From the NCBI GenBank assembly GCA_041651055.1, contig JBAZJW010000001.1:536506-600505 (forward strand): 64,000 nucleotides of DNA, read 5' to 3'. The position numbers were made by a program, and so were the translations under genes. Positions 18,648 through 36,287 of the stretch are shown here, in pieces. The notes under the pieces are model-generated. The model ran no database searches and was not told where the DNA came from. It saw nothing but the letters and a program-made list of their open reading frames with translations. The DNA comes from Minisyncoccota bacterium. Lineage in GTDB: Bacteria > Patescibacteriota > Minisyncoccia > Phycocordibacterales > UBA5272. Position 1 is the first letter of the stretch; every line of letters starts with the position of its first letter.

Positions 18648-18699
18648 GAGGGGTAGATATTAGATGTTAGGGGCTAATCTCGGGTTATCTAACATCTAA

Positions 18700-20269: not shown

Positions 20270-20404
20270 ATGTCTATAACATATAATCCAAAGCGAAAGA
20301 AGCGTGGAACAACGCACGGATTCCTCGTCCGTATGGCTACAAAAGATGGACGCAGAGTGATTGCACGTCGCCGATCAATCGGACGTAAGAAGCTTTCTGT
20401 TTAA
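20270..20404 (+). CDS. rpmH: 50S ribosomal protein L34.
   Basis: 44 aa [44 protein letters not shown]; not in the ORF track; classic position upstream of rnpA. Confidence 0.9.
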
Positions 20405-20415
20405 TCTGTATCTAT

Positions 20416-20727
20416 ATGCTTCCGAAATCGGAACGCCTCACAAAACAAGACTTTACAACCTTTAGACCAAAAGGTATGTTTCGTGGCACCTATGTTGATA
20501 TTGCCTCTACCCCTTCCCCCTCCTCTAAATTTTCTTGTGTCATTGCAAAAAAAAGAATTAAACGTGCCGTTGATCGAAATCGTGTAAGTCGAAAAGTCTA
20601 TGCGATTCTTGAAGAAGTAAAACCCTCAACCCCTCGTCTCATTGTTGTTTATCCAAAGGTTTCCGTTCTTACGGGAAATAAAAATCTCATACAAGAGGAA
20701 ATACGTGCCGCATTTGCTACACTATAA
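20416..20727 (+). CDS. rnpA: RNase P protein component.
   Basis: 103 aa, basic; rpmH-rnpA-yidC synteny. Confidence 0.8.
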   Translation: MLPKSERLTKQDFTTFRPKGMFRGTYVDIASTPSPSSKFSCVIAKKRIKRAVDRNRVSRKVYAILEEVKPSTPRLIVVYPKVSVLTGNKNLIQEEIRAAFATL

Positions 20728-20732
20728 CAACT

Positions 20733-21449
20733 ATGTTCCACACATTCTTTTACGAACCGGTTTACAACCTTCTTGTTGCTGTTCTCACCTATACGCCACT
20801 TCATGATATTGGTGCGGCTATTGTTATTGTGACTCTTCTTGTGAAAGGACTTCTTCTTCCTCTTAATCTTTCCGCACTTCGTAGTCAATATGTAATGAAG
20901 CGTCTTGAACCAGAAATGAATAAGATTAAAGAGCTTCAAAAGATAAACCCACACGATGCTTCAAAACAAATGGTGGAACTTTACAAACGTGAAAAGATAA
21001 ATCCTTTCGCGAGTCTCTTCGTTGTGGTTATTCAAATTCCAGTATTCTTTGCCCTTTACTTCGTGTTTTCAAAAGGGCTTCACAATGACCCTTCTTCCCT
21101 TTATTCCTTTTTTACCTTCCCTGAAACTCTACACACGAATGCCTTTGGTTTATTTGATGTAACAAAAAAGAATATTGTTGTAGCGATATTAGCAGGTATA
21201 TCATCATATTTTCTTGCCCGAAGACAAACTGCAACAATGGTTTCAAAAAAAGAAGCACATGAAGAAAATTTTCAAGATCAGTTTATGAAGTCAATGAAGA
21301 TTCAACTTCTCTATGTTCTTCCTGTTATTATTGCGGTGTCTGCAGCAGTGCTCCCTTCTGCCCTTGCCCTCTATTGGTTCATTAGTAACTTGGTTGGCTA
21401 CGCGCAAGACGTCTATATGAAAAATAAGCTTGCACACTTGCAATCGTAA
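20733..21449 (+). CDS. yidC: Membrane protein insertase YidC/Oxa1 (short form).
   Basis: 238 aa, 5 predicted TMs; synteny with rnpA. Confidence 0.8.
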   Translation: MFHTFFYEPVYNLLVAVLTYTPLHDIGAAIVIVTLLVKGLLLPLNLSALRSQYVMKRLEPEMNKIKELQKINPHDASKQMVELYKREKINPFASLFVVVIQIPVFFALYFVFSKGLHNDPSSLYSFFTFPETLHTNAFGLFDVTKKNIVVAILAGISSYFLARRQTATMVSKKEAHEENFQDQFMKSMKIQLLYVLPVIIAVSAAVLPSALALYWFISNLVGYAQDVYMKNKLAHLQS

Positions 21450-21660
21450 AGTTTTTTCTTACTTGGGAGAAGTAAAACCTCCTTTTAGATTCCAAATTTC
21501 TTTCTCCTAATTTAAAATCTCTTTTTCTTTTTCAAGTAACCCCTAAAACCAAACGATGTATCCGCCTGCTGGCGGATCATCTCACTCTCGCCTCGTCAAG
21601 CTCCGAGAGTTGGTTTGTAGGGGTTACTTGAGGGTGGTGAATACGGATGCGTATCAAACT

Positions 21661-21776
21661 ACTCCTCACCTAACCTTTTATATCAACTCACGGACCGCGA
21701 CGGCGGGAGTGGGAGGCAACTTTTCAGCAGAAAAGTATGTCGTTTGATATAAAGGGTTGAGGTGAAAAAAGAGAAA
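21661..21776 (+). repeat. Copy L of a 115-nt hairpin-forming repeat (inverted partner at 36108-36255).
   Basis: ACTCCTCACCTAACCTTTTATATCAACTCACGGACCGCGACGGCGGGAGTGGGAGGCAACTTTTCAGCAGAAAAGTATGTCGTTTGATATAAAGGGTTGAGGTGAAAAAAGAGAA. The ends form a stem of about 22 bp (CACCTAACCTTTTATATCAA / TTGATATAAAGGGTTGAGGTG). Confidence 0.8.
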
Positions 21777-21840
21777 ATTTGAATCTAAAAAAGAAACTTT
21801 GAATTTAGAAAAAAGAAAGAAGTTTGAGTCTATCAACTAT

Positions 21841-22827
21841 TTATAGTCCATTTAAAGAAGGATCGGAAAGACACGCATTTGCTTCGCAGGCATAATTTTT
21901 TACGAAGGTCATGTTTGTGGCGGAAGGTCCTGGATTAATTGGGCAGGCCCATTTTGGAATCGCACTTGTAAAGCCTGTAGAAGTATTACAATCAGCACTG
22001 GGATCATTTGAATTCATTCCAACTGTTCCGCAGCAGTTGTATGCCGCGAACACGCTTGCAGGAGCAGGAACATTGCCATAGGTTTGTGCTCCCATTTTCC
22101 CAGCCAATAGCTGTGCTCCTCGTGAGATGTTGGTTGCTGGGTCAAGAATAGAACCACTGCATGCACCAGGTTGGTTTATTTGCATGAGACCGCAGTCATG
22201 TGACTGGTTGTCATTCACATGATCAGCATTAACATCTAAAGAGCGATTCTCTTTACATAAAAGAACAATAAGCATCTTTACGTCGACCCCATTATTTGCG
22301 GCTGCTGTTTTTAGGAGGGGTAAATATCGAGTGTAATTACAACCACTAAGAGCACTGCATGTTGCTGCGCCACAAACATTTCCAGAACTAAGAGATGAAA
22401 GAGTGCTTTGGACAGTTGCTGCCGGCACCGCACCCGTCGCAGCCACCCCTCCCGTTCCCGCGGCCCCACCTGTTACCATCGCTCCCCCCTTCACTCCCTC
22501 CGTCTTTAATACCGCAAGCCCAACATCTCCATTAAGTAAATCCTTATTAAACGTATAGATAACAATAAACATAGAAAACACACCAAGTAATCCAACCGTT
22601 ACCCTTTTAAACTCTTCATTCGACATCTTTACATACTTCTCAGACGCAGCCATTCTCCATATACCTGCTAATGCATATCTATAAAAAGCAGCAGCTACAA
22701 TTGCCACAAACAACAACGTATACAAAAACTTAGACGTTGCAAGAAAAGACCCTGTAATCTGTGTAGTGGGAGACACAGCTGCTCCGGTGATTTGGGAGAC
22801 GATGGAGGGTTCGAGGTTTTGGTACAT
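21841..22827 (-). CDS. Membrane-anchored peptidoglycan lytic transglycosylase (2-TM N-module plus SLT-like domain; VirB1-like role).
   Basis: N-terminal two TM helices. C-terminal ENRSLDVNADHV...SHDCGLMQINQ resembles the SLT E...GLMQ catalytic motif. The 5' 320 bp is nearly identical to 24201-25031. Confidence 0.6.
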   Translation of the reverse strand: MYQNLEPSIVSQITGAAVSPTTQITGSFLATSKFLYTLLFVAIVAAAFYRYALAGIWRMAASEKYVKMSNEEFKRVTVGLLGVFSMFIVIYTFNKDLLNGDVGLAVLKTEGVKGGAMVTGGAAGTGGVAATGAVPAATVQSTLSSLSSGNVCGAATCSALSGCNYTRYLPLLKTAAANNGVDVKMLIVLLCKENRSLDVNADHVNDNQSHDCGLMQINQPGACSGSILDPATNISRGAQLLAGKMGAQTYGNVPAPASVFAAYNCCGTVGMNSNDPSADCNTSTGFTSAIPKWACPINPGPSATNMTFVKNYACEANACLSDPSLNGL

Positions 22828-22829
22828 AG

Positions 22830-24146
22830 TTATTCAACGCTAATGAGATTCGTTCGAAGTAACCACAGAGAACCGTTTTGTTTTTGAATAAATCCCATAG
22901 AAACATTGTCTGGAGAAAGAACAGGGTTAGTTATATCCATTTCCCCATCTGATTCATTGAATGAATATAAAGGGTATGTGGCTCCTGATGTCGTATCAAC
23001 AATTTTTAATGTATCGGTGAAGTGCGTTCTTCCTTGGAACCAATCATCAGGCAGGCCCTCTTCGGCAATCGGTATCATAACGGGAACGGCACATAGAAGA
23101 AAATCTCTAACACCCCAGACACATTTCGAAGCAAGTGTTGGAGAAGAAAGGACTATTTCTTTTTGTGATTGAGAAATAAAAGCAACAAGACCTCTGTCTG
23201 TCCACACACTACTTAAAAAAGTTCCTTTCTCTCCAGGATTACTCATGAGTCCAGTCTTATCACCAGTGCGATACTCAAAAGAAGGAAGAGAAACAGTCAT
23301 TCCTAAAACATAAGCTGAAGGATTGCTTGTAGCATAGAGCGTGTCTCCACCATATGAAAGAGACCATTCTTTGAAAGGAGATGTTGAGACCAAGCCTCCT
23401 CCTTTTGCTGTAATGGTATAGATGGCACTTCCGTTTGTCGATGGGACAAGATAAGAAAGAAGTGTTCCTTTTTTATTGGTGGCAATTGAGGTTATTCCAA
23501 GAGGAAGTGATGTCATTTTTGTAAGTGACTGAGGGCTTCCGTTTGGAAGAGAGTTCGGAATTATTGCTAGTACTGTTGTTATGACTTGCTTGTCTTGGTC
23601 GAAAGAACGTATGGCAACGCGTGTCCCATTTTCAAAAATGTATGCATCATGAACTCCCAAGACTGTGGTGTTGGTTACCTGTCTAGTTACTCCTTCTTTT
23701 AGATCTTGCTCATAAATATATCCTGTCGCCCTATCGACAAACATGAATATGGTTGAAGTTGCTCTAATCGTCTTCTTTACCATAAGAGGTGTAGTTGTTC
23801 CTTTTGTTGTCGTTGTAGAAAACACATCAAGAAGTATTTGTCGTGTCACAAAAGTCTGTCCTGTTGCTGGTTTGTCCCACACTTTAGTTAAAGCTTGGAG
23901 AGTGGTCGGTACAGACGTTGTCCCTGTTGTTTGGTTTGATCCCGTAGATGCATTGTTAGTATCAGGACCCCCTCCTCCAAAAATAAATTGAAAACCCTTC
24001 GTTAAAGGAGAGGTCGGAAGTGAATTTGTTGGTTTCGCAAGCGAGGGTGTTATGGCCGGTGTTACATAAACGAAATACCACACAAGAATGACAATAGAAA
24101 AAAGAAGAACGAGTCCGACGATAAAAAGTAAACGACGATTATTCAT
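22830..24146 (-). CDS. N-terminally anchored extracytoplasmic protein of unknown function.
   Basis: 438 aa; single N-terminal TM then Thr/Ser-rich linker. Confidence 0.5.
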   Translation of the reverse strand: MNNRRLLFIVGLVLLFSIVILVWYFVYVTPAITPSLAKPTNSLPTSPLTKGFQFIFGGGGPDTNNASTGSNQTTGTTSVPTTLQALTKVWDKPATGQTFVTRQILLDVFSTTTTKGTTTPLMVKKTIRATSTIFMFVDRATGYIYEQDLKEGVTRQVTNTTVLGVHDAYIFENGTRVAIRSFDQDKQVITTVLAIIPNSLPNGSPQSLTKMTSLPLGITSIATNKKGTLLSYLVPSTNGSAIYTITAKGGGLVSTSPFKEWSLSYGGDTLYATSNPSAYVLGMTVSLPSFEYRTGDKTGLMSNPGEKGTFLSSVWTDRGLVAFISQSQKEIVLSSPTLASKCVWGVRDFLLCAVPVMIPIAEEGLPDDWFQGRTHFTDTLKIVDTTSGATYPLYSFNESDGEMDITNPVLSPDNVSMGFIQKQNGSLWLLRTNLISVE

Positions 24147-24200
24147 ACAGAAAGTATAGCATCCTCTTCTGCAAGAGGATGGGTTAAAAAAGTTTTATTA

Positions 24201-25031
24201 CTAGTGTCCACTAAATGAAACATGAAAGTGTTCCGTTGTTGTTAAGGAATCACACCCTGGAGATTCGTCCCAGAATTTAAATCCTCCCCAGGCATACCGT
24301 ATATCACACCCTGTCATCGATCCTGCTGCTGTACCATTTGTTTTAATAAAATTTAAAAGACCAGAAGACAGACTCAAATCCACAGCTTCTTTCCCTACTC
24401 CGTGATTAGAGTTAGCGCTGTGAGGTTCTGTTCCTCCTGTTATGAGAAGGCTGCAGGTTGGACAGGCTGTCCTTAGCTTTTGAAGCATAGTAATGGTTGC
24501 TGGGTTAAGGCCAGCCACATTTGTACACCCTGTGGTTTGTGCTCCAGAACAAGGGTCGTGGTTGATGGATATCCCCGCTAATTGTGCACGAACATCGGCT
24601 TCTGAAGTGCTCGCCCCTGCCGGTACCGCACCCGTTGCCCCAGTCGCCCCTCCTCCACCAAAAACTACAGCCCCTCCACTCACCCCCTCCGTCTTTAATA
24701 CCGCAAGCCCAACATCTCCATTAAGTAAATCCTTATTAAACGTATAGATAACAATAAACATAGAAAACACACCAAGTAATCCAACCGTTACCCTTTTAAA
24801 CTCTTCATTCGACATCTTTACATACTTCTCAGACGCAGCCATTCTCCATATACCTGCTAATGCATATCTATAAAAAGCAGCAGCTACAATTGCCACAAAC
24901 AACAACGTATACAAAAACTTAGACGTTGCAAGAAAAGACCCTGTAATCTGTGTAGTGGGAGACACAGCTGCTCCGGTGATTTGGGAGACGATGGAGGGTT
25001 CGAGGTTGGAATATGATACAGAGGATGCCAT
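24201..25031 (-). CDS. Membrane-anchored peptidase M15-like peptidoglycan hydrolase (same 2-TM N-module as 21841-22827).
   Basis: C-terminal LITGGTEPHSANSNHGVGKEAVDLS and TTEHFHVSF resemble the M15/VanY zinc-binding motifs (SxHxxGxAxD ... EpWH). Confidence 0.55.
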   Translation of the reverse strand: MASSVSYSNLEPSIVSQITGAAVSPTTQITGSFLATSKFLYTLLFVAIVAAAFYRYALAGIWRMAASEKYVKMSNEEFKRVTVGLLGVFSMFIVIYTFNKDLLNGDVGLAVLKTEGVSGGAVVFGGGGATGATGAVPAGASTSEADVRAQLAGISINHDPCSGAQTTGCTNVAGLNPATITMLQKLRTACPTCSLLITGGTEPHSANSNHGVGKEAVDLSLSSGLLNFIKTNGTAAGSMTGCDIRYAWGGFKFWDESPGCDSLTTTEHFHVSFSGH

Positions 25032-25037
25032 GGATGA

Positions 25038-26012
25038 CTATTGTTTACGAGTATCAAACACAAGATCAATATCAACCTGTGCTTTTTGTAATCTCCTTAC
25101 ACTGTTGTCGACACTGATAGAAAGAGGTCGAGATCCGTAGCTATCTTTCTTTGGTGAAAGTGAAAGAAGTGTCCCTCCTATTGGGGTGATAGGCATACCG
25201 TCTAGTGACCAGTCATATGAAACAGTAGATCCGAGAGATCCTCGAGATGAAAGGAAGAAAGGAACAAGACTTAATGTAAAATCTTTTGTTGTTTCAAATC
25301 GTCGAGTGATAAGGTTTGTAAAATCTGTCCCCAAAACAGCATCATACGTATAAAGAAGAGGCATTACTTTGTGTGGATATATCTCTATGGTGTTTTCTGC
25401 TTTTGTACCATAGGGTGCCGTTGCTATAACTTTTACGGTTGTTGAATCTCTTACATACTCAAGAGGAATGGGTACGGATTGTTTTCCTGCTCCGGAAAGA
25501 GATTCGAGCAGTTCGTCGTTTGCATACCATGTATATGAAATAAGATCTGCCGGAACTTTCTTTCCATTCTCACTCATTGCGGGAATAGCGGAAACACGCG
25601 CTGTTGACCCTTCGCTTCCAAGAGACCTCCCCTCATAAAAAGGAGGAACATATCCTTCGGAGGATTCGTAGAGAAGAGAGACAGATTCAGGAACAAGGCT
25701 TACAGAGGCTTCGAGCGTTGTGCCATTTGCGGTGACTGCTTTCGCACGAAGAGGTAACACTTCACCAGAAGCACCTGTTCGCACGGTTATTTCTTTTTTA
25801 CCAAAACCTGAAAGAATTTGTTTTGTTCCAGAATACCAGGTGATCATCGCAGTAGAAACGTTAAATGAATAACTTGAAAGGGTGAGTGTTACAGAAGAAT
25901 ACGGTGCTGGGCTCGTAGGATTTATATCGATGGTGCCATCTACACTTGACGCAGACGCCACAAAAGGCGTTGTTAAAAAAAGAACAGTTAAAAAGATGTG
26001 GGTTATTTTCAT
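25038..26012 (-). CDS. Secreted protein of unknown function.
   Basis: 324 aa with signal peptide MKITHIFLTVLFLTTPFVASA. Confidence 0.5.
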   Translation of the reverse strand: MKITHIFLTVLFLTTPFVASASSVDGTIDINPTSPAPYSSVTLTLSSYSFNVSTAMITWYSGTKQILSGFGKKEITVRTGASGEVLPLRAKAVTANGTTLEASVSLVPESVSLLYESSEGYVPPFYEGRSLGSEGSTARVSAIPAMSENGKKVPADLISYTWYANDELLESLSGAGKQSVPIPLEYVRDSTTVKVIATAPYGTKAENTIEIYPHKVMPLLYTYDAVLGTDFTNLITRRFETTKDFTLSLVPFFLSSRGSLGSTVSYDWSLDGMPITPIGGTLLSLSPKKDSYGSRPLSISVDNSVRRLQKAQVDIDLVFDTRKQ

Positions 26013-27826
26013 AGACCTCTTGATTGTGCTACTTCATCTTTCATGGCTTTTATTTGAAGAAGTTGAGACGGATCACTTGTGATAATTTGATCTTCTGTAT
26101 ACGATGCTACAATTTTGATTGCTACATGTTTGAGTCCTGCAAAGAATATTCCCTCCCCTACACCAGATTCGAGAAGTAGGAACTTTTCTTCATCAGTTAA
26201 ATTGAAGGTCTTTTGTACAAGGTCGATAGATGAAGGAGATTGTTTGAGGAGAAGTTGAATGGAAGAGTTTGTGATAATAGGAAGACCATAGGGTGACTTC
26301 AAAAAGTCTCCAACATCTTGGGTTATTGTCGCAAGTCCTAGGTAATATTTTCGTCCACGCTTTGCAAGACCGAAAAGGAAAGATGCAGTGTCATCATTTT
26401 TCATCATAATCCACGCTTCATCCACCACGAGAAGTCGTTTTTTGATGACTTTACGAACGGAATTCCAAATATAATGCGTGATAATGTACATTGCTACCGG
26501 CTTCAGTTCTTCCTCCATGTCTCGAATAGAAAAACATACAAGTTTTTTATTGATGTCTACGTTTGAGGGTTGGTTGATAAAGCCAGACCATGTCCCTTTC
26601 GTGTATTTTGAAAGACGCTGAATTAAGTCTGTTGAACCATCGATTCCACCGAGAACTGTTTCGAAGTCTGAAAGAAGAGGTGGCTCAAGTTTTGTGAAAT
26701 CAACATCACCACTAATATCCTTGAGGGCATAGGTCTCTGTAATTGCCTGGTCAATGATTGCGTCTTCGGCTGGTGTGAGACCTCCTAGCATCACACGGAA
26801 CAATCCCACGAGGTTAACGATGTTTGAACGAAGAACTTCAGACGGAGACTCGTCTTCTGTTGGATGAGGAAGATCAAAAGGATTGATATGGTGCTCACTT
26901 GTAAGTGAAATGTCGAAATATCTACCTCCAACAGACTCTGCGAGATATTCGTATTCACGTTCTGGGTCGATAATAATAACTTCCGTGTCGAACATCAATG
27001 TGCGGAGAATTTCCAATTTTGTAAGATAACTTTTTCCAGATCCAGACTTGGCGAATACGATGGAGTTATAGTTTTCAAGAGAAAAACGATCAAACAAAAT
27101 AAGCGAACCGTTGTGACGGTTAAGTCCGTAGAGTATCCCCCTATCAGAAGAAAGGTCAAAAGATACGAAAGGAAAGAATGATGAAAGAGGAGATGTGTTT
27201 AATTTATTTTTGATGCCGAGCAAGTCTTGTCCAAGAGGAAGCGTTGAAAGAAAACCTGTGTCTTGCTGAAAGAGCGCTGGCTTCACATAAATAAGACGAC
27301 TTTCGAGAATATTTTTGATTTCACTTTCTACCTTGTCCACCTCATCTTCACTGCCACCGTAAATAGAAATATACAAAGAGACTTCAAACATTTTTTCCTG
27401 AGCCTGTGTTAATCCGTCACGCAAATCTTCGAGGTCCTTGTAGGCAACATCAAGCGAAGGGTCTCGTACAAGTCCCTTTTCTTCACGTGTCATGATTTGA
27501 CTCTCTACTTCAGCTACCTTGCGTTGAAATTTTTTCATTACATCACCGGTATCAAGCGGTGTCACGTGAATGGCAACGTCGAATACTTTGTCTAAGTTGA
27601 TGATGGGACTCAACCAATTCTCAGAAAGATATCTCGGATATGAAATGACAAAGTAAGAACGTACGATACTTGTGCCTAAGTTGAGTGATTTCGGTTGTAC
27701 ACCAAGAGCACTTGGTGCGATGATGTCTTTCAATTGCATTTCGGCAACTTTGTACACCTGCTCTGGAAGAAGTGGGGATACCGGAGAGTCTTGTTTTTTT
27801 GAATTGAGAAAATCGAAAAGTCCCAT
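26009..27826 (-). CDS. virB4: Type IV secretion ATPase, VirB4/TrbE/CagE family.
   Basis: 605 aa; Walker A FAKSGSGKSY, Walker B LLVVDEAW; length and motif spacing of Gram-positive-type VirB4 (TcpF/PrgJ-like). Confidence 0.85.
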   Translation of the reverse strand: MGLFDFLNSKKQDSPVSPLLPEQVYKVAEMQLKDIIAPSALGVQPKSLNLGTSIVRSYFVISYPRYLSENWLSPIINLDKVFDVAIHVTPLDTGDVMKKFQRKVAEVESQIMTREEKGLVRDPSLDVAYKDLEDLRDGLTQAQEKMFEVSLYISIYGGSEDEVDKVESEIKNILESRLIYVKPALFQQDTGFLSTLPLGQDLLGIKNKLNTSPLSSFFPFVSFDLSSDRGILYGLNRHNGSLILFDRFSLENYNSIVFAKSGSGKSYLTKLEILRTLMFDTEVIIIDPEREYEYLAESVGGRYFDISLTSEHHINPFDLPHPTEDESPSEVLRSNIVNLVGLFRVMLGGLTPAEDAIIDQAITETYALKDISGDVDFTKLEPPLLSDFETVLGGIDGSTDLIQRLSKYTKGTWSGFINQPSNVDINKKLVCFSIRDMEEELKPVAMYIITHYIWNSVRKVIKKRLLVVDEAWIMMKNDDTASFLFGLAKRGRKYYLGLATITQDVGDFLKSPYGLPIITNSSIQLLLKQSPSSIDLVQKTFNLTDEEKFLLLESGVGEGIFFAGLKHVAIKIVASYTEDQIITSDPSQLLQIKAMKDEVAQSRGL

Positions 27827-27830
27827 AGAA

Positions 27831-28469
27831 TTATTCTTGTGTTATTTTAGGTGCCGAACGATCTTGCTCGCTTGGGTTGAAGAGTTTATAGAAAAGCTCT
27901 ACAACCTCTTCTGTGCCAAGCTTTTGTGCACGAATACCGAAACGGGAAAGCCCTTGCACTACGGTCGCAATGCGTTGCTCGAGTTGTATACGAGCTGCGG
28001 TGAAGGATGCTTGATTTTCGGCGGAAGTATTATTTCCAAGGCCAAACGAAAGCAGTGACGATGTACCTGAAGGCTTTGCGTTTTCTTGGAAATATGGAAT
28101 GACAATAAAGAAATGCTTGGTCATAATGTTTGTCTCGTCTGCAAATTTTTTAATGAACCCCATGTACTCATGGATTTGTATTTTCAAAAGGTCTTCTTTG
28201 ATTTCGGAACTGCGAGATTGAAGTAGTTCCATGTAGGGTTTGATGTTGAGTCTGCGAGATTGAATGAAAAATTCCACAGGGAAATCAAGTGAATTGAGGA
28301 GGGTTTGGAATTGTAGCAAAATAGCCTGTTGTTCGTCCTCGCTCTTAAGAGCGAGGTTGAGTGAATTGGTGATGAGCACTGCACGAAGTTCCCCTGTTTT
28401 GAGTACGACGACACCATCACGAACTCTTTCGATTGGTACAAATTGTTGTGTTGCTGTTCCGACTGCCAT
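27831..28469 (-). CDS. T4SS-cluster hypothetical protein (no TM).
   Basis: 212 aa; 5 nt downstream of virB4. Confidence 0.45.
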   Translation of the reverse strand: MAVGTATQQFVPIERVRDGVVVLKTGELRAVLITNSLNLALKSEDEQQAILLQFQTLLNSLDFPVEFFIQSRRLNIKPYMELLQSRSSEIKEDLLKIQIHEYMGFIKKFADETNIMTKHFFIVIPYFQENAKPSGTSSLLSFGLGNNTSAENQASFTAARIQLEQRIATVVQGLSRFGIRAQKLGTEEVVELFYKLFNPSEQDRSAPKITQE

Positions 28470-28594
28470 GTGAACCTAGTATATCAGACAAGAGAGAAGA
28501 GACGTGTGAGAAAGTACACAAAAGAGAAGAGGCTACTCTTCTCAATATTCAATGAATTTAATAATCAATATTCAAAAGTGATCCAAATACTAGA

Positions 28595-28615
28595 ATTACA
28601 ATGACCGTCATTGCA
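28595..28615. promoter_or_regulatory. Operator-like palindrome ATTACAATGACCGTCATTGCA (also a perfect 49-bp inverted pair at 33133-33181).
   Basis: CAATGACCGTCATTG is self-complementary. Located in the 180-bp gap between operon segments and preceded by AATATTCAA motifs at 28541-28578. Confidence 0.45.
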
Positions 28616-28649
28616 AAAAAACACAATCAACCACCACATAGCTCTCCCC

Positions 28650-29078
28650 CTACTCTTTTTCTTCTTGATTGTGATCAAACACATCTAATCCAAGAGCTAC
28701 ATCGTGTAATCTGTCTTTGTTTGCTTTTGAAAAAATAACTTCTTTAGTTGTGTCTGCTACCACCTTATCGATATGATCATCCCCCACCGCAGGTGTCTCA
28801 GGCTGCTTCCATGTGTAAATCTTTGCACCAGTGTAATATGCGAAAGCACTTTCTAGTATTTCTCCAAAAGAGCGATTATTTATTTTAACAAAAGCGAGCG
28901 CAAGGAAAAGTCCCGCCACAGGAACGATAAGAATAATGGCAATAATTTTAATGGAAACGAATGTCCAAATAAGAAATGAGAAACCTCCAGCTCCGAGCAG
29001 ATACCCGAACTGTTTTAACGTAAGAGGGCCGACGACTTTGTCTTCTGTATCGATGAATTGTGGTACGCGGAATTGCAT
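28650..29078 (-). CDS. VirB3/PrgI-like small membrane protein.
   Basis: 142 aa, two adjacent TMs, N-terminal FIDTEDKVVGPLTLKQFGYL; position next to virB4. Confidence 0.45.
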   Translation of the reverse strand: MQFRVPQFIDTEDKVVGPLTLKQFGYLLGAGGFSFLIWTFVSIKIIAIILIVPVAGLFLALAFVKINNRSFGEILESAFAYYTGAKIYTWKQPETPAVGDDHIDKVVADTTKEVIFSKANKDRLHDVALGLDVFDHNQEEKE

Positions 29079-29152
29079 ATATTTTAGTATACCTCACTTT
29101 ATTGTTTCCTCGTAAAGAGCTAAACAAGAGAAGGAATGTCTTGATTTTTTGT

Positions 29153-29234
29153 AAAATATTCAATAAAACAATAATCAATATTCAGAATTATGCGAAAATG
29201 CTAGTAGATATTAAATATTGTTTTATTGAATATT
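29153..29234. repeat. Inverted pair of the AATATTCAATAAAACAA motif (AATATTCAATAAAACAATAATCAATATTCAG ... AAATATTGTTTTATTGAATATT).
   Basis: The same 17-mer occurs at 11351-11377 and inverted at 13216-13243; TTGAATATTCAA is a 12-bp palindrome. Confidence 0.6.
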
Positions 29235-29985
29235 ACTCTGAGATTTCCCTATACGGATCCACATTGTACTTCGTCGGCGCGGTGCTGTAGGTCGCAGCTT
29301 GAAGTTTTGGCTTCGCCGTTGTCACCCCCTGATCACCGAACATATAGTCTTCCAGTGCGACGGTTTGATCAAGAGAAACATCTTCCTTTTTTTCTATCGA
29401 AGCGATTTGCTCTTGTATATGAGAAAGTCTAGCCTCCACCTCCTCATCATTTGGAATAGATCCTAAGATTTGTAATTGTTCGAGAAGTTGTGAGCGTGAT
29501 CCAGGTGTAAGAACGAAAGGTTTTTTCTGAGCCGGCTTAACCCCTTTCGATACCTCTGACTGATCTTTTACCATTCCTGACTCGCGTTTTGTGGTATCGA
29601 GAATTTCTTTTCGTAATTCGTCGGGAGATCTTTCTCCTTGAAAGACAAGCTCCTTGACCCCACCTTCTGCTTTTCCAAGAATAGAAATGCGGGCCTTTTC
29701 GAGAATACTTTTTTCTAGGTCGGTTGCAATTTTATATGCGTCTTCTGGGGAGACTTTTACAAGATCTTGAAGTGCAAGAAGAACATCTTTAGGCTCAAGT
29801 GCTCCGATAAGAATAAAAGAAATGACATTTGAGAGCGCGACGTATGCGTTTACGGGAAGATTATATGTCTTTCCTAAAATTGCTGTTGCCTTATTAACCT
29901 CATCTCCTTCGATGAGATGTTGAACATCTGCTGGGGCTGCATCGAACAATTCATCTAAGTTTTTTGCTATGTATGGAGGGTTCAT
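29233..29985 (-). CDS. Hypothetical protein of the T4SS-like cluster.
   Basis: 250 aa; hydrophobic segment NVISFILIGAL. Confidence 0.45.
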   Translation of the reverse strand: MNPPYIAKNLDELFDAAPADVQHLIEGDEVNKATAILGKTYNLPVNAYVALSNVISFILIGALEPKDVLLALQDLVKVSPEDAYKIATDLEKSILEKARISILGKAEGGVKELVFQGERSPDELRKEILDTTKRESGMVKDQSEVSKGVKPAQKKPFVLTPGSRSQLLEQLQILGSIPNDEEVEARLSHIQEQIASIEKKEDVSLDQTVALEDYMFGDQGVTTAKPKLQAATYSTAPTKYNVDPYREISE

Positions 29986-29988
29986 AGA

Positions 29989-32961
29989 TTATACAGTTGC
30001 TGCGGCTCCTGCGGGAGAGGGTGTAACAGTTGGAGGCCGTGTTATGGTTTCACCTGATGAGGAAGATCCTCCTTGGGCTTTTTTAATTGTTTCCACCGCA
30101 AGGTCTTCAAAAGGAACAAAGTTGTCTGCTCCTCCACTCTTTGGAGAAGGGCTTGTTGGTGGTGTTGTTATTGAACCTTCTTCCGCCGCATCATCTCCTT
30201 TTTGAGCTCTGGCAATAGTTTCTGCTGCAAACTGTTCTGATGCCTGTTGCTGTTCGTGTGTTTGAGTATCAATAAGATTTATTGCACTTTTTTGTTTTTC
30301 TTCACGTCTCTTCGCTGTTCTTTCAGAAAAAGATTCTATTTGTGGATTAAATGAAGAAGAATTAAAAGTCTTCTGCATGTTCACGACATCGCTTGCCGAC
30401 ATTACAGACGGAGGGTTTGTGATTCCGTTTGGATTTGTCCGTTGAGCATTATTTGGAGGAGGTGTAACACCTCGCACAGGGGCGACGAAGGAATTATTTC
30501 CTACGGCGCCACGTACTCTAGGAGTATTTTGTCTAAAGATTGCAGGTTGTTGATTTGGTTGCCATGGAGTTCTCGGAGTTCCTGCTGGAACATTTCCTGT
30601 CGGTGCAACAAAAGGAGTTCCGGGTGTTGTTGGGTTTGTCGTTTGGTTTTGTGCATTAACTGCCTGAGCTGTCATAACCGCTTGAGTTGCGGCGCTCGGT
30701 TGCCCTTGAAGGTTTGTAGCCATTGTTCCGAAAGCTGAAACTCCAGGACTTACCGTATTTGCTTGCGATGTAATTTGATCTCGAAGACTTTTTGGCAAGC
30801 TTTCAAAAAAGGCATCTTTTCTGTCTCCGTCTTTCATGCTATTGTACTTTTTCACCTGATCTCCTTCCTCTTCTTTTATTTTTGCTGCAGTTATTTGCCC
30901 ATCAGTACGAATTCCTCCGATGTTGGCACCTTGTAATTGCCCTCCACTTGATTTTTGTGTCAGATATTTTTCACGAGCATCTCCATCTTTAATGCTTGCA
31001 TACTTCGAGCGCATTGCCTTATCTTTTTCAGCGAAGGTTTTATCATATGTCGCATCTGATCCTTTGCTCATACCTCCCATGCCCATGATTCCAGCGCCCA
31101 TGCCAGCCTTGGTCAGACCCTTATTCACTGCTCCAATATTTCTCGCGTCATATGTGCTCGTTGCAAGAGAATTCGTGAGAGAATAAAGGCCTCGCCCTGT
31201 TCGACTGCCTTGCATCTTATCCATCCATCCACTGTCTCGTGCGCTCGCCGCGATCTTTCCTGCTGTTCCTCGTGCGAGGAATCCTGCACCCCCTGTCGCC
31301 ACACCGAGACCGAATCCTCCGACTTTACCCATCGCATCTGTGGCAAAGGTTCCTGCTTCTCCTGCGATTTTCTTGGTAACTTTCATTGTAATATTGAGCA
31401 TGATGAGCATCATCGCAAGGTTGAAGAATGTCACGATTGTCCCCTCGCCTGTACCAGAAAGCCCAGATAAAGAACCTGCACTTTGTTGCAAAAGTCCTGG
31501 CTTATTAAACACGTCCATAAATTTTAGAGAAAGCGCAAGCATTATCATAAACACAGGAGCCACAACAAGTTGTTCAAAGAATAGTTTTCGAAGCGTTTTT
31601 GCTTTTTCTCCAAGAGCAGGAATCACACTGTCTACGAAAAGTATAGGAGAAGCGACAGTGAGAAATATTAAAAGTGCCGTACGTACAATTATTATTCCAG
31701 CTGCCATAAAGAATATGTATGCGGCATACAAAACAAAGACGACGGCCATAAGGGCTCCTGCGGTGGTATTGATTCCGCCAACAAGCCCTTTTGACGAAGA
31801 GTCTCCTGCCACTTTAGTGGCGCTCATTACAAGGTCTTGCAGTCCAAGCTTATTCATAATAAGTGCCCCCGGGGTACTCTTTCCTGCGCTAAACAAATCA
31901 GCAAGACTTCCTGAGAGTGCATCTGGACCTACAGCACTTGAGTATATATTTAGTGCAACTATATTAGAGACATCAATGAGCGTGCGCGTGAGCGGGTATG
32001 AAAAGTTTACGAAAAGTGCGAAGATGATAAGCCATGGGAAAAAAGCTTCAAAGGTTTTTTCTCTTCCAATGATATACATGAAACCAAGATACAGCCCCGC
32101 GAACACAATGAAGAGCGATACGATTTGCCGTACAATGGCCCAAATAGGATAAAGGTCGGATGTTGCCCATTTGCTGAAATTAAGAATACCGAGCTGCACT
32201 CCATAGTTGAGAACGTTTGCCCCGAACCACACAAGGAATCCCGCAATCTGAAGGAGTGTGTTTTTAATAATCCACCCAATGAGTGAGTCAATACAGGCAA
32301 CAAGGTTTCCTGAGGCGAGACTACAGTCACTTGGACGAGTGTCACGAACTACCGCCGGAGTGTTTGTGTTTCCTGCAGCTGCTGCAGTAATTGTTGAAGG
32401 GTTGTTTTGAACATTGGCCAGATCGCTTCCCGCAGTAGTATTTCCTGATTTTATTTGTAGAGCAGTTAATAGTGCTCCAGTTTGTATTTCTTTTGTGTAC
32501 TGATCATACGCACCTCTTTGAGGTGCACTTGCACTGTATTTATTGATTAAATTTTTACTAGCTGCACCGTCAACAGAGCTTTGCCAAGCTTGGATGGCTT
32601 TAATTTGAGCATCTACAGCCGGAGTTGCTTTTTGTTTTTCTGCTTCAAAAACAGAGGAGTAAGCGCTAAAACTTAAAAGTTCGGCACTTTTAAAGTCTAA
32701 GGTCGCCTGTCTTTGAATGGTATAAGTTGGAGAGTTTGCGTCTACGGTGAGAAGCTTGTCATCAAGAGCTTTTATGAAGGCATCATGATCAGATTTTACA
32801 ATCCCAAAAAAATAGTCATAAGTTCCTTGAGAATTAAGTGCATTCCCCGTTGCTGTTTGACTGTCTGTCGCTTGTGCAAAAGCTCTCTCCGGCATCACAA
32901 ATCCACCCAACACGCCGACAAACATGAGAGAAATAACAGCATACAACCCTAGTCTTTTCAT
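29989..32961 (-). CDS. VirB6/TrbL-like polytopic membrane protein with large N-terminal periplasmic region and Pro/Thr-rich C-terminal tail.
   Basis: Start set at the MKRLGLYAVISLMFVGVLGG signal (track start 33099 is read-through). At least 8 TM helices in the middle; low-complexity C-terminus. Confidence 0.6.
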   Translation of the reverse strand: MKRLGLYAVISLMFVGVLGGFVMPERAFAQATDSQTATGNALNSQGTYDYFFGIVKSDHDAFIKALDDKLLTVDANSPTYTIQRQATLDFKSAELLSFSAYSSVFEAEKQKATPAVDAQIKAIQAWQSSVDGAASKNLINKYSASAPQRGAYDQYTKEIQTGALLTALQIKSGNTTAGSDLANVQNNPSTITAAAAGNTNTPAVVRDTRPSDCSLASGNLVACIDSLIGWIIKNTLLQIAGFLVWFGANVLNYGVQLGILNFSKWATSDLYPIWAIVRQIVSLFIVFAGLYLGFMYIIGREKTFEAFFPWLIIFALFVNFSYPLTRTLIDVSNIVALNIYSSAVGPDALSGSLADLFSAGKSTPGALIMNKLGLQDLVMSATKVAGDSSSKGLVGGINTTAGALMAVVFVLYAAYIFFMAAGIIIVRTALLIFLTVASPILFVDSVIPALGEKAKTLRKLFFEQLVVAPVFMIMLALSLKFMDVFNKPGLLQQSAGSLSGLSGTGEGTIVTFFNLAMMLIMLNITMKVTKKIAGEAGTFATDAMGKVGGFGLGVATGGAGFLARGTAGKIAASARDSGWMDKMQGSRTGRGLYSLTNSLATSTYDARNIGAVNKGLTKAGMGAGIMGMGGMSKGSDATYDKTFAEKDKAMRSKYASIKDGDAREKYLTQKSSGGQLQGANIGGIRTDGQITAAKIKEEEGDQVKKYNSMKDGDRKDAFFESLPKSLRDQITSQANTVSPGVSAFGTMATNLQGQPSAATQAVMTAQAVNAQNQTTNPTTPGTPFVAPTGNVPAGTPRTPWQPNQQPAIFRQNTPRVRGAVGNNSFVAPVRGVTPPPNNAQRTNPNGITNPPSVMSASDVVNMQKTFNSSSFNPQIESFSERTAKRREEKQKSAINLIDTQTHEQQQASEQFAAETIARAQKGDDAAEEGSITTPPTSPSPKSGGADNFVPFEDLAVETIKKAQGGSSSSGETITRPPTVTPSPAGAAATV

Positions 32962-33132
32962 GGGTTTAGTGTACCACAAGAATCTTGGCAAATTAGTGCA
33001 CAGAGGGTAAGAGAAAGCTAGAAGTTGGAAGCTAAAGGCTAGAAGCTTACACGGGGGAATATTCAACCTGCCTGCGCAGGCAGGTGAAACAATTTTCAAT
33101 ATTCAAACATTATTCAAAATTCAAACGCCGCA

Positions 33133-33181
33133 ATTACAATGACCGTCATTGCACAGGGCCCGCAATGACGGTCATTGTAAT
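33133..33181. promoter_or_regulatory. Perfect 20-bp inverted repeat ATTACAATGACCGTCATTGC / GCAATGACGGTCATTGTAAT with a 9-nt spacer; candidate operator or terminator.
   Basis: Read directly. Preceded by the palindrome ACCTGCCTGCGCAGGCAGGT (33068-33090) and AATATTCAA motifs. Confidence 0.5.
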
Positions 33182-33308
33182 GTGTAATTGTATGTATCTG
33201 TATTTCTCTAAACTTTACACTTTATTTCTTTACACCTTCACCCAGCCCTCCCATCTCTTACCTTTTCACCCTCCCCTTTATTCCTTTACACTCTTATCTT
33301 GTACACTT

Positions 33309-35063
33309 TTACCACATCTCTAGTCGTTGACGTGTAGACGCGCAGTCGGCTTGGTACGTTGTGAGAGCCCCTCCTTCAAGCGAAGCTGTCTCAGCCTCTC
33401 CTTTGTATGTCTGGTAATCCCCTTCTCTTGATATTCCTGAAGTAAGGCTTGGTAATTTTTGAGAATCGACTTGGTTTTGATATGCATTAAAGGTATTTAG
33501 AATTTCTTCACTAGAAAGAGATGCTTCTATTTTGTTCTGTGTGTTTGTTACCAGTGTTTTTGTTGTTCCTATTAGAGAAATTTCTGCTCTAAGTTTTACA
33601 ATAAGTGCGTCATTACTTGCCTTCTTCCCTGTGTAGTAGTTTGTAAATGAAGCCTGTGTCGCGCTCGCTTGTGACTGAGGGTAATCTGCTACAAGCTTGT
33701 CATAACACGCCTTTACGGTATCTATTTGACCTTGAAAGACTTGAACACTAGAAATGAAGCTTTGATCTGTTGTTTCTAGTGTTGCAAGGGACTCTGCGTG
33801 CATAGCGAGCTGGTCTTTTGTCGGCTTGGTTAGTGTTGTCTTTGCTGTAGGGTTGTTCGTTAAATCTTTTACAGGAACTGTCGTAGATGTCGTCGTTGTG
33901 TTATTCGGAGTAACAGCAGTGACGGTGGTCGTTTGTCCACCAACGGTTGCCTGTGCCGTAGAAGCCCCTCCGCCAGAACCTCCTCCACTAAGAGGACTCA
34001 TTATGCCGTTAATAAGACCGATTGTTGTGAAAGCTGTACTGATAAGTGATCCCGCCCCTTTTCCGAATCCTGCAAGTGCAACTTTTGTTGGTCCATCGAT
34101 TGCTCCTTTGAATGAATTATTGAGCACACTCGCTGCTTGCTGTATTTCTTCTTGAATACAAGGAAGGCTTAGAGCGGCTGCCCCCGTTACCGTTACTCCA
34201 TTGGCATCAGTCGTCGTTCTTTTCGTACACACGGTTTTACTTTTTATTCCACCTCCTGCCGCTGTGTCTGCTTTGGCAAGTTCTACTTTATCTGCCGCCG
34301 CCTTATCTATTACTTGCTGAGAGAGTACGGATTTTGTGTATGCGTTATCCCCTCCTGTTGTGGCAAGCCAGTTGTCCCATGAAGGATTTATTGCTGACAC
34401 TGCTTTGATTGCAGCGAGTGTTTTCGGATCTGACAAGCTTCCGCAGAGAGCGTTGTTGAGCTCTGTTTTGCGTGCCGTATATTGTGCTTGTGTATAGTTC
34501 GGATTGACTGACATTACGTCGAGCTTCGCCTGGGCAGAGAGGGCTGCGTCGGTGCACCTGGTTTTCTGTTCTGCCGCCGGAATACCGGAGGCTCCAAGTA
34601 TTGCAAGCTTTGTAGAAAGTGGAGCTGCGTCGAATTTTGTGGTTGCAATAACAGAACCCAAAATACTATTACTATATACGCCATTTTGTTTTGCGATATC
34701 GCCAAGACTTGCGTTTACTACTGCAAGTGTTTTGTTTTGAAGGTATAACTCTGGATTCTTAATGAGAAGTGCCTCTGTCCCAAGAGATCCTTTAATAAGA
34801 TTTTGAATAGCGTCCCCTGACTGCATAATACTGATGAGCGTCATCGCGTCTCTCATTGGAATGAGGACGTTATCATTTATTGTGGCAAGGGTTTGCTGTG
34901 TTGCTGTTATCGGTGTTGCAAAAGCCGTGATGGTTTCTTTCACTGCATCGAACCATCCCTGTACTACATTTTTACAGTTGGAACAATAAATAGCATTTAC
35001 CTGTTGAGGTGTGGAAGAATAGAGAATCGTTGTAAAGAGAACACTGAGAATAATTTTTTTCAT
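33309..35063 (-). CDS. Large secreted protein of unknown function.
   Basis: 584 aa with signal peptide MKKIILSVLFTTILYSS; Ala/Thr-rich. Confidence 0.5.
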   Translation of the reverse strand: MKKIILSVLFTTILYSSTPQQVNAIYCSNCKNVVQGWFDAVKETITAFATPITATQQTLATINDNVLIPMRDAMTLISIMQSGDAIQNLIKGSLGTEALLIKNPELYLQNKTLAVVNASLGDIAKQNGVYSNSILGSVIATTKFDAAPLSTKLAILGASGIPAAEQKTRCTDAALSAQAKLDVMSVNPNYTQAQYTARKTELNNALCGSLSDPKTLAAIKAVSAINPSWDNWLATTGGDNAYTKSVLSQQVIDKAAADKVELAKADTAAGGGIKSKTVCTKRTTTDANGVTVTGAAALSLPCIQEEIQQAASVLNNSFKGAIDGPTKVALAGFGKGAGSLISTAFTTIGLINGIMSPLSGGGSGGGASTAQATVGGQTTTVTAVTPNNTTTTSTTVPVKDLTNNPTAKTTLTKPTKDQLAMHAESLATLETTDQSFISSVQVFQGQIDTVKACYDKLVADYPQSQASATQASFTNYYTGKKASNDALIVKLRAEISLIGTTKTLVTNTQNKIEASLSSEEILNTFNAYQNQVDSQKLPSLTSGISREGDYQTYKGEAETASLEGGALTTYQADCASTRQRLEMW

Positions 35064-35068
35064 AGATA

Positions 35069-36001
35069 TTATTTAGGAGTATATCCTACGGTGAAGACGT
35101 ACCCTTTTTCTTTTGATGTAAAGCTTATATTTTTTGAATCAAAATAATGAGAAAGTTCTTGGTGAATACGAAGCACAGACATTGTGCTATTTTGATATTT
35201 TTGAAAAGCAAGTGTTGCACGAAGTGGGTCCGTGGAGGCGTGTGAAAGGTCTCCTAATGTGTCTCTATATAACGCTATACGGTTAATTGCCAGTAAATGG
35301 TATGCAGAAGCCGACAAAGGAACAGGTAACGCTAGCAACTTTTTTAATTTTGCATCAACTCGAGTGTAATTCTTTGCCAAAGGTGCAAGATCCTCTGCTT
35401 TTTTTGTATCTGTGAAATTTTGTACTGCAGTAAGGTCTTCCAGTGCTGCTTGCTCTGTAATAACATCATCCAGAATTACAGCAACTGCATTTCCATACAC
35501 CCGCACAGTTTCGTTTGCTTCATTTTTTACAACGTTGAGATCTTTAAAAGAATACGTTGTCGGAACCATTTTTGCGGCTTCTTCTGCCATTAATTGATTC
35601 ACGACATTTTGTTGTGATGCTTCATCGGTAATGTTGTTGCTTTCGAGGTATGTCGAAGCAACATAGAGATTTTTTGAAAATGATGAGGTAAGGTTGTTCG
35701 GATCATTAAGTGCCGCTATGGCTTTCGGGTCTGGTTGCGAATTTTGCAATTCTTGAGCCGCTGCAGCACCTCCTTCAGAACTTAGAATAAGTTCTTTCCA
35801 GCTTATTTGTCCGTTGCCATCCGCATCTTTTGCGAAATCATTCACCGTGGTCAACTTATTGAAGTCCACAGGTGTGTAATTGCTTACTTGCGGCTTGACT
35901 CCTATCCACCTTGCAGGAACAAAAGCACTCATAATTAAAAGCATAACGATACCTCCGATAATAAGGAGAGGTTTTGAAGGTGAGACAGGTTGGGGATTCA
36001 T
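35069..36001 (-). CDS. N-terminally anchored extracytoplasmic protein; first gene of the minus-strand block.
   Basis: Start set at MNPQPVSPSKPLLIIGGIVMLLIMSAF (TM); the track's longer N-terminus is leader read-through. Confidence 0.5.
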   Translation of the reverse strand: MNPQPVSPSKPLLIIGGIVMLLIMSAFVPARWIGVKPQVSNYTPVDFNKLTTVNDFAKDADGNGQISWKELILSSEGGAAAAQELQNSQPDPKAIAALNDPNNLTSSFSKNLYVASTYLESNNITDEASQQNVVNQLMAEEAAKMVPTTYSFKDLNVVKNEANETVRVYGNAVAVILDDVITEQAALEDLTAVQNFTDTKKAEDLAPLAKNYTRVDAKLKKLLALPVPLSASAYHLLAINRIALYRDTLGDLSHASTDPLRATLAFQKYQNSTMSVLRIHQELSHYFDSKNISFTSKEKGYVFTVGYTPK

Positions 36002-36107
36002 ATCTGTCAGTATACATTGAAAAAGAATACAAAAGATTGGTATGTTAACATTCTTTCTCCTTGAGACCAGGCTGGTCTTTTTTTGTTTTAAATATTTTTT
36101 TAAAGTC

Positions 36108-36255
36108 TTCTCTTTTTTCACCTCAACCCTTTATATCAAACGACATACTTTTCTGCTGAAAAGTTGCCTCCTACTCCCGCCGTCGCGGGTCGACTGGTGA
36201 TTAGCCGACACCTGTAGACGGTCCGTGAGTTTATATAAAAGGTTAGGTGAGGAGT
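36108..36255 (-). repeat. Copy R of the hairpin repeat, inverted relative to 21661-21776; carries a 32-nt insertion flanked by a GACC microhomology.
   Basis: The reverse complement matches copy L over about 115 nt at 96-98% identity apart from the insertion GTCTACAGGTGTCGGCTAATCACCAGTCGACC. Confidence 0.8.
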
Positions 36256-36287
36256 ATTGGGTTCAATATAGTACTCTCAAGCACACT

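Follow-up and report, generated by a model that had tools for sequence, protein, structure and literature searches.

A relaxase-free gene cluster of the Patescibacteria type IV secretion family, conserved beside the replication origin in Paceibacteria

A block of eleven co-directional minus-strand genes in a 64-kb stretch of DNA from a Minisyncoccota bacterium (contig JBAZJW010000001.1; the whole stretch is referred to as the window) almost certainly encodes a Patescibacteria-type type IV secretion system (T4SS). A large part of the uncultured diversity of bacteria consists of Patescibacteria, which are attached to host cells, and the block is the origin-adjacent, relaxase-free T4SS cluster that nearly all of them carry. 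It probably represents the Paceibacteria version of a chromosomally fixed system that does not conjugate and has a role in contact with the host. An initial annotation, made from the sequence alone, had placed the eleven open reading frames (ORFs) at 21841-36001, and all of them were found there (g1 to g11, Table 1).

The system itself is already known from work published between 2023 and 2025, and since it is in the literature, the novelty ascribed to it by the initial annotation was overrated. In a survey of 3,035 Patescibacteria genomes, Quinonero-Coronel et al. (2025, Microb Genom, PMC12102498) described T4SSs across 2,407 assemblies, in dnaA/rnpA/ksgA neighbourhoods and with no relaxase. 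Their VirB4 proteins form a monophyletic clade nested in the Gram-positive MPF_FATA type, with TrsD as the commonest neighbour; PrgI, VirB6 and VirB2-like pilins were reported as well, VirB1 was associated with virB4 in Paceibacteria, and the neighbourhood in this class holds dnaA, dnaN, rnpA and ksgA. The window locus shows no essential difference from this description. It shares with it VirB4 and the adjacent TrsD, PrgI/VirB3, a protein of VirB6-like topology, VirB1-type hydrolases and putative VirB2-like pilin domains, the lack of a relaxase, coupling protein (T4CP) and outer-membrane parts, and the site beside dnaA, dnaN, rnpA and ksgA. The likeness to Gram-positive conjugation cores and to loci of the candidate phyla radiation/Patescibacteria, which had been pointed out from the sequence, was borne out, and the published description fits the locus point for point. 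The system probably descends from a Gram-positive (MPF_FATA) conjugation machine that has lost its DNA-processing side.

Composition of the locus

Three T4SS components had been recognized in the block, and profile searches of its ORFs bore out VirB4 and VirB3 directly and VirB6 by way of its orthologues. In g5, the VirB4 profile PF19044 matched at 2.6e-25, PF12846 (AAA_10) at 7e-10 and DUF87 at 6e-7, and the Walker A (GSGKS) and Walker B (VVDEAW) motifs are readable in the translation and intact. The closest VirB4 homologues, at least 120 clusters at 87-95% identity, all come from metagenome-assembled genomes (MAGs) of Paceibacteria/Parcubacteria. Orthologues of the other components were counted in the best 80 of 592 confirmed VirB4 relatives, obtained from a scan with one genome per species; every one of these 80 loci is from a Paceibacteria/Parcubacteria-type MAG. 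VirB4 identity is highest in the closest 18 genomes (Table 1) and amounts to 71-75% in the rest. The block proteins are 100% identical to Candidatus Paceibacterota MAG entries (locus tags WC444_02970-03015), annotated at NCBI as a DUF87 protein, a PrgI family protein and hypothetical proteins.

Table 1. Features of the T4SS block and of the adjacent origin region. Identities are against the closest 18 genomes.
Feature	Position	Strand	Size	Description	Identity (%)
g11	35069-36001	-	310 aa	Bitopic membrane protein; first gene of the block; family unknown	23-45
g10	33309-35063	-	584 aa	Secreted; conserved cysteines	20-39
Hairpin	33133-33181	-	21-bp perfect stem	Between g10 and g9; followed by the promoter-like motif TTGAATATTGA	
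g9	29989-32961	-	990 aa	Extended VirB6-like polytopic membrane protein	33-49
g8	29233-29985	-	250 aa	Family unknown; one weakly hydrophobic stretch	
g7	28650-29078	-		PrgI/VirB3 family, two transmembrane helices; membrane anchor of VirB4	58-74
g6	27831-28469	-	212 aa	TrsD-like; detached N-terminal segment of split VirB4	65-78
g5	26009-27826	-	605 aa	VirB4-family ATPase (motor)	85-93
g4	25038-26012	-		Secreted; three Ig-like repeats	40-54
g3	24201-25031	-		VirB2-like pilin domain and Cys-rich domain with LAS/M15-like zinc-peptidase motif	28-48 (g1/g3)
g2	22830-24146	-	438 aa	Membrane-anchored extracytoplasmic seven-bladed beta-propeller	33-51
g1	21841-22827	-		VirB2-like pilin domain and SLT lytic transglycosylase (VirB1 analogue)	28-48 (g1/g3)
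Direct repeat	22496-22818 and 24685-25007	-	323 nt	Shared pilin-like domain of g1 and g3	
rpmH	20270-20404	+	44 codons		
dnaN and dnaA	17332-20112	-		DnaA given for comparison, same genomes	82-95 (DnaA)

One of the six proteins that had been listed as lacking a recognizable family, g6, proved to be TrsD, while for g2, g8, g10 and g11 the lack of a sequence family held. The g6 gene lies directly upstream of virB4 and is found in 76 loci at 47-78% identity. It matches the NCBIfam models VirB4_plasma (3.3e-12, profile positions 104-233 of 894) and TrsD (4.4e-6) and the CD1110 VirB4 model (7e-7, positions 1-125 of 752), and its precomputed Pfam assignment is PF26593, TraC-like. When compared profile to profile with the family of the 605-aa VirB4, it showed no similarity (probability 0.2%), and on this value the possibility that TrsD duplicates a domain still present in VirB4 was rejected. 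Since g6 matches models of the VirB4 N terminus and not the neighbouring VirB4, the motor is split into TrsD and the 605-aa core, with g6 as the N-terminal piece that the core otherwise lacks. The two add up to 817 aa, the usual size of VirB4.

The PrgI/VirB3 assignment of g7 is supported by PF12666 (2.8e-10; 41 bits, the cut-off being 27) and by two hydrophobic helices; the gene lies two genes upstream of virB4 and has orthologues in 74 loci. For g9, the topology agrees with the VirB6-like protein that had been proposed, with a signal peptide, an extracytoplasmic domain of ~250 aa, five to six transmembrane (TM) helices (TM-like segments at 4-22, 276-294, 306-324, 393-425, 460-478 and 508-526) and a low-complexity hydrophilic tail of ~460 aa. 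The protein of the window gave no match in profile searches, those against the PDB included, and its family is indicated through the orthologues, present in 56 loci: PF04610 (TrbL/VirB6), the sole recurring family, matches 8 of 55 of them weakly (best 2.6e-4). Residues W274, N319, S321, D330, N333 and R427 are invariant. As far as their sequences tell, VirB4, PrgI/VirB3 and the VirB6-like protein would together make up the translocon set of the cytoplasmic membrane, in which VirB4/TrsD hexamers would dock on PrgI and VirB6 and power the channel.

Genomic context and conservation

Housekeeping genes flank the block on both sides, in the order dnaN, dnaA, rpmH, rnpA, yidC, block, ksgA, uvrD, with rnpA and yidC on the plus strand between rpmH and the block. 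Every related locus that spans the region (~80 genomes) has the gene order of the window, uvrD-ksgA-(g11...g1)-yidC-rnpA-dnaA-dnaN, in the same orientation, which answers the question, left by the initial annotation, of whether the block recurs in relatives: it is conserved at one site in ~80 Paceibacteria genomes. The GC content is 0.40-0.45 in the block and 0.35-0.50 in the flanks, showing neither an anomaly nor an island. Since the synteny is fixed and the composition reveals no island, the block belongs to the vertically inherited core, at a site beside oriC, and is not a mobile or integrated element. The conserved part of the system in Paceibacteria comprises g11, VirB6, PrgI, TrsD, VirB4, the Ig-repeat protein, the pilin-domain protein and the propeller. 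The identities in Table 1 show that the motor is as constrained as the replication proteins, while the parts exposed outside the membrane evolve fast, a gradient that is in line with exposed parts facing a changing partner.

These data bear on the explanation that the block is an ordinary conjugative element, either an integrative and conjugative element or its remnant, with relaxase, T4CP and integrase located outside the window or recently lost. The VirB4, PrgI, VirB6 and hydrolase core is indeed that of Gram-positive conjugation, inverted copies of a 116-144-nt repeat bracket the block, and a tyrosine recombinase is encoded at 51746-52693. However, the block keeps the same position and orientation between housekeeping genes in ~80 genomes, its VirB4 is as conserved as DnaA, and its composition is not anomalous; the bracketing repeat is absent from the related loci and is one of several genome-specific families, and the recombinase is 16 kb away amid housekeeping genes. 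Moreover, almost no relaxases were found in Patescibacteria, those near virB4 being restricted to 15 genomes (PMC12102498). A conjugative element is thus highly improbable, and an integrated one was rejected on the fixed synteny and normal composition.

Pfam scans of the large ORFs agreed with the earlier statement that no VirD4-type T4CP, relaxase or VirB11 is present in the window. Neither a relaxase nor a T4CP adjoins the block, none being found within 21 kb on one side and 28 kb on the other, and the sole T2SSE-family ATPase in the window (9645-11345, 566 aa) is of the PilB/MshE type. The statement that no integrase is visible has to be corrected, given that the plus-strand ORF at 51746-52693 encodes a tyrosine recombinase that matches Phage_integrase at 1.2e-39 and has a SAM-like domain at its N terminus. 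This recombinase is probably XerC/D.

The bracketing repeat lies at 21660-21790 (+) and 36100-36256 (-). The two copies are 98% identical, one having a 28-nt insertion, each carries its own terminal inverted repeats of ~18 bp, and the element folds with z = -4.8. It is missing from all 80 related loci and belongs to one of several intergenic repeat families of this genome; because it is genome-specific and one of several such families, it was read as a dispersed REP/MITE-like element and not as part of the system. Inverted copies could allow inversion of the 14-kb block. When they were considered as marks of an invertible or mobile segment, the element proved absent from the 80 loci, all of which have the same orientation. 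An exact-pattern scan of metagenome contigs found nothing, a VirB6-based metagenome scan yielded no relatives, and independent assemblies break at the repeats.

Matches to the DnaA box occur at 18605, 18627 and 18639 (span 18605-18647), between dnaA and dnaN, and an AT-rich tract occupies 20126-20190 of the origin region (17332-21449). The DnaA boxes and the divergence of rpmH and dnaA suggest that the origin of replication is located here; the GC skew is too weak to confirm it. The T4SS operon, ksgA, uvrD and the gene of a 1466-aa protein (~23 kb) are transcribed towards the presumed origin and would therefore run head-on to replication. For the operon, this direction of transcription is conserved in all related genomes.

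Between uvrD and ksgA, which are usually adjacent in the related loci, the window has a minus-strand ORF of 314 aa (37173-38117) without a family match. No tblastn match to it was found in the 80 related loci, and it appears to be a lineage-specific orphan insertion.

Pilin-like domains of the two hydrolases

The SLT domain reported in g1 was verified with PF01464 (1.2e-4, residues 173-265). The score of 22 bits lies just above the Pfam cut-off of 21.3, eight orthologues match down to 2.9e-10, and the context of the catalytic Glu (CK-E-S/N) is kept across the aligned orthologues. For g3, which had been called an M15 peptidase, the zinc-peptidase motif was recovered, and profile support was not, nothing being matched in Pfam, NCBIfam, PHROGs or the PDB profile search. 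Its C-terminal domain contains the invariant residues E202/H204...H210-x7-D218...H268-x-H270 and four invariant cysteines; the M15/LAS criterion applied called for H-x(6)-D as zinc ligands with a further, distal H (H-x-H or W-H), and for a profile or fold match. We take the pattern E...H...H-x7-D...H-x-H to resemble that of VanY/LAS zinc peptidases.

Both g1 and g3 start with the same two-helix (two-TM) membrane domain. In three distant orthologues this N-domain matches PF18895 (T4SS_pilin) at 2.6e-5, 3.6e-5 and 5e-3, none of which reaches the gathering score. The VirB2-like pilin domains of the two hydrolases had been overlooked in the initial annotation. An HMM of the pilin-like domain finds just g1 and g3, so the 64 kb contain no free pilin gene. 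In 63 related loci, the HMM places a pilin-domain ORF between g4 and g2.

The domain is encoded by an exact 323-nt direct repeat with 100% DNA identity between g1 and g3 (Table 1). In the seven genomes with both genes, the pilin N-domains are 85-100% identical within a genome and 47-67% identical between genomes. High identity within genomes and lower identity between them are a hallmark of repeated gene conversion; the shared domain is under concerted evolution, with the 323-nt repeat as the conversion tract. Two independent short-read assemblies (L083 and L084) both break inside this repeat. Neither the pilin-hydrolase fusion nor its homogenization was found in the main text of PMC12102498 (supplements not searched).

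This architecture raises the possibility that the hydrolases are cargo or working parts of the T4SS, and not mere wall-openers for it. In that case, the pilin domain would load both enzymes into the T4SS channel or pilus, and the SLT domain and zinc peptidase would be displayed to the host wall or driven into it, breaching it at the contact site; the identity of the pilin domains within a genome would reflect both enzymes fitting the same fast-evolving assembly partner. We consider this unlikely. If true, it would be a pilin-fused effector mechanism, and none has been described for any T4SS.

The pilin-like domains also bear on whether the block serves adhesion alone, by making a pilus or a fibre on the surface, with no transport function. 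The presence of VirB2-like domains, of exposed Ig-like and beta-propeller proteins typical of adhesion, and the fast divergence of the exposed parts would all be expected of such a structure. However, pilin-like domains fused to enzymes of ~170-220 aa are hard to fit into a tightly packed VirB2 filament, and the HMM search turned up no free pilin in the window. Moreover, a separate type IV pilus ATPase of the PilB type is available for adhesion and motility, and the VirB6 channel protein is conserved. A purely adhesive role is therefore quite unlikely, and a transport system remains the preferred reading of the block.

Extracytoplasmic proteins

The structures of g2 and g11 were modelled with AlphaFold2 and compared with the VirB8 fold. 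The g11 model (85 sequences; pLDDT 87.3, pTM 0.76) has one N-terminal TM helix followed by an all-alpha extracytoplasmic domain. Foldseek found no fold match in the PDB (best E 0.5), and the matches with a probability of 0.85-0.91 were only partial, to the helical bundle of periplasmic sensors. No match was found in the Pfam, NCBIfam, PHROGs and PDB profile searches either. Orthologues occupy the same position in at least 37 of the 80 loci, with Y169, P228 and D258 invariant.

The g2 model (120 sequences; pLDDT 88.9, pTM 0.79) consists of a TM helix (3-27), a disordered Thr/Ser-rich linker (34-75) and an all-beta seven-bladed propeller. Foldseek returned 779 PDB matches at E<=1e-3, every one of them a propeller (best 1.6e-7), including WDR5, Sec12, TolB and the trilobed protease. 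There is no sequence family for g2 in Pfam, NCBIfam, PHROGs or PDB profile searches, and its orthologues were found in 57 loci. The models thus predict that the g2 and g11 domains lie outside the membrane. As VirB8 homologues both were rejected on fold, since g11 is all-alpha and g2 a beta-propeller, and neither is of the NTF2 type expected of VirB8. Neither the propeller, the all-alpha subunit nor transcription of the operon in the direction of the origin was found in the main text of PMC12102498 (supplements not searched).

The g4 protein has a signal peptide and invariant tryptophans at 59, 162 and 268, giving a period of ~105 aa; it showed weak matches to a PKD-like Pfam family (8e-4) and to Hoc/Fab in the PDB, and it is encoded directly downstream of virB4 in 71 loci. 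The g10 protein starts with a signal-like sequence and has four invariant and three nearly invariant cysteines. It gave no family or PDB match in the Pfam, NCBIfam, PHROGs and PDB profile searches, and outside the closest clade no orthologues of it could be recognized. No component of the block evolves faster, and g10 is a candidate for a subunit at the surface or in contact with the host. The g8 protein is confined to the close clade, where ~17 loci have clear orthologues and a few further loci gave weak matches; its C-terminal motif P237...DPY...E is invariant, and there was no significant match in Pfam, NCBIfam, PHROGs or the PDB. Overall, PDB profile searches with g11, VirB6, g3, g10, g4 and g8 returned nothing significant, and the PHROGs and NCBIfam searches of the unknown proteins returned nothing except TrsD.

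Intergenic elements and transcription units

Neighbouring genes of the block overlap by as much as 4 nt or lie up to 54 nt apart; three gaps are wider, at 154-347 nt (g7/g6, g8/g7 and g10/g9). These three gaps carry the promoter-like motif TTGAATATTGA, which recurs in other intergenic regions of the window. An AT-rich intergenic motif (ATATTGAATATTGTTTTATTGAATATT and variants) is found at 11350-11432, 13217-13264, 28544-28587, 29153-29234 and 33091-33118, upstream of several genes, three of them inside the block. It may be a promoter element of the organism, and its positions suggest that the block comprises three or four transcription units.

The hairpin between g10 and g9 has a perfect 21-bp stem (ATTACAATGACCGTCATTGCG...) and a fold z of -5.0; one transcription unit probably ends and another begins here. 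Upstream of the TrsD gene, half of the element is repeated at 28595-28615, and this half-copy is in turn a 7-bp palindrome. The hairpin element was not found in any related locus, and the palindrome CAATGACNGTCATTG was rejected as a conserved operator, being absent from all of them.

Among the related loci, L013 and L063, from other Paceibacteria genomes, have their own, unrelated families of intergenic repeats scattered through the same T4SS locus. Such repeats seem to accumulate in the T4SS region in several lineages.

Other features of the window

Two large minus-strand genes, at 40762-45162 (1466 aa) and 3965-7534 (1189 aa), encode proteins with almost no family matches. In the gene of the 1189-aa protein, units of 27 and 54 nt are repeated in tandem (5213-6775), and the protein weakly matches DUF11 and the EB module. 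Both are probably surface proteins of a kind common in episymbionts.

Direct repeats of 63 nt (8788-8850 and 9485-9547, 98% identical) flank an ORF of 140 aa at 8935-9357, which is Gln/Pro-rich and lipoprotein-like and lies just upstream of the PilB/MshE-type ATPase; a third, diverged copy is located at 982-1044. Within 8-140, the 3' end of a tRNA-Lys(UUU) overlaps a perfect 34-nt inverted repeat (71-104/107-140). This tRNA was the only known RNA that Rfam found in the window, the left flank giving one chance-level match.

Relation to known systems and proposed function

The closest experimental counterpart is the T4SS of Southlakia epibionticum ML1 (SEML1_0006-0019), a member of the Saccharimonadia, whose genes were shown by Tn-seq to be essential for epibiotic growth (Wang et al., 2023, Cell, PMC10633639). 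It has a Gram-positive-like composition without a recognizable relaxase or coupling protein, a position near the chromosome start, and peptidase and lysozyme homologues downstream of virB4, all of which the window locus shares. The two differ in that the Southlakia array includes six free VirB2-like pilins, whereas the window locus has pilin domains only as fusions, and in that essentiality was shown for the Southlakia system only.

With the MPF_FATA systems (pCF10 prg/pcf, pIP501 tra, pGO1 trs), the locus shares VirB4 (PrgJ), PrgI/VirB3, by topology a VirB6-type polytopic protein (PrgH), membrane-tethered wall hydrolysis by two enzyme activities (SLT and peptidase in PrgK/TraG) and the lack of an outer-membrane core, and with pGO1 also TrsD. 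In contrast to them, it lacks a T4CP (PcfC), a relaxase, an oriT and a surface adhesin (PrgB/PrgC), and a VirB8-like PrgL/TraM did not turn up among the modelled g2 and g11. It is chromosomal and vertically inherited, it carries the hydrolase activities on two pilin-anchored proteins, and it adds the beta-propeller and Ig-repeat subunits. Bordetella Ptl and Brucella VirB likewise are driven by VirB4 and work without a coupling protein, exporting proteins and not DNA (via PMC12102498). These, however, belong to the diderm MPF_T type and possess a VirB7/9/10 core, VirB11, and VirB2 and VirB5 as free proteins, all of which the window locus lacks.

In the mechanism that we propose, the two tethered hydrolases would open the cell's own wall or the peptidoglycan of the host, and the Ig-repeat, propeller, all-alpha and Cys-rich proteins would form a wall-spanning channel or short pilus that touches the host cell. 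The machine would move proteins or other molecules between episymbiont and host and would not conjugate DNA. A 2025 review that lists these systems (PMC12857230) speculated on a conduit that carries signals or takes up material from the host.

Uptake could also concern DNA, with a machine resembling Helicobacter ComB or archaeal Ced that imports host DNA as a source of nucleotides or for transformation. ComB-type uptake T4SSs likewise have neither relaxase nor T4CP. Patescibacteria cannot make nucleotides, the T4SS of the ABY1 class lies near comF/recG/radA (PMC12102498), and uvrD and ruvB/ruvC are in the window. However, deletion of comEC in Southlakia abolishes transformation and leaves the cells viable, whereas the T4SS is essential, so that competence (ComEC) is not the essential function (PMC12857230). 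In addition, no competence genes lie beside the block, and uvrD and ksgA are conserved housekeeping neighbours. DNA uptake is thus very unlikely.

Several points weigh against a non-conjugative host-contact system as we propose it. What the machine carries, and in which direction, is wholly inferred. The experimental data, on essentiality, come only from a different class, the Saccharimonadia (PMC10633639), whose cluster has free pilin arrays that the window locus lacks. A T4CP may be encoded in another part of the 775-kb genome, and distant VirD4 homologues are present in most Patescibacteria (PMC12102498). Within the block, the VirB6 assignment draws on the weak matches in 8 of 55 orthologues, the g3 peptidase is a motif-level assignment, and the pilin-domain matches fall short of the Pfam gathering score. 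No VirB8-like (NTF2) subunit was found among the two modelled candidates, g2 and g11; VirB8 is rare outside the ABY1 class (PMC12102498).

The locus is not a new kind of system, but a clean, fully syntenic Paceibacteria example with a fuller parts list. To our knowledge, no T4SS other than that of the Patescibacteria is known to be indispensable for its bearer's growth. The parts list adds a split VirB4, gene-converted pilin-anchored hydrolases, and beta-propeller, Ig-repeat and all-alpha subunits, which are concrete targets for cryo-electron tomography, pull-downs and genetics in a manipulable Paceibacteria co-culture.

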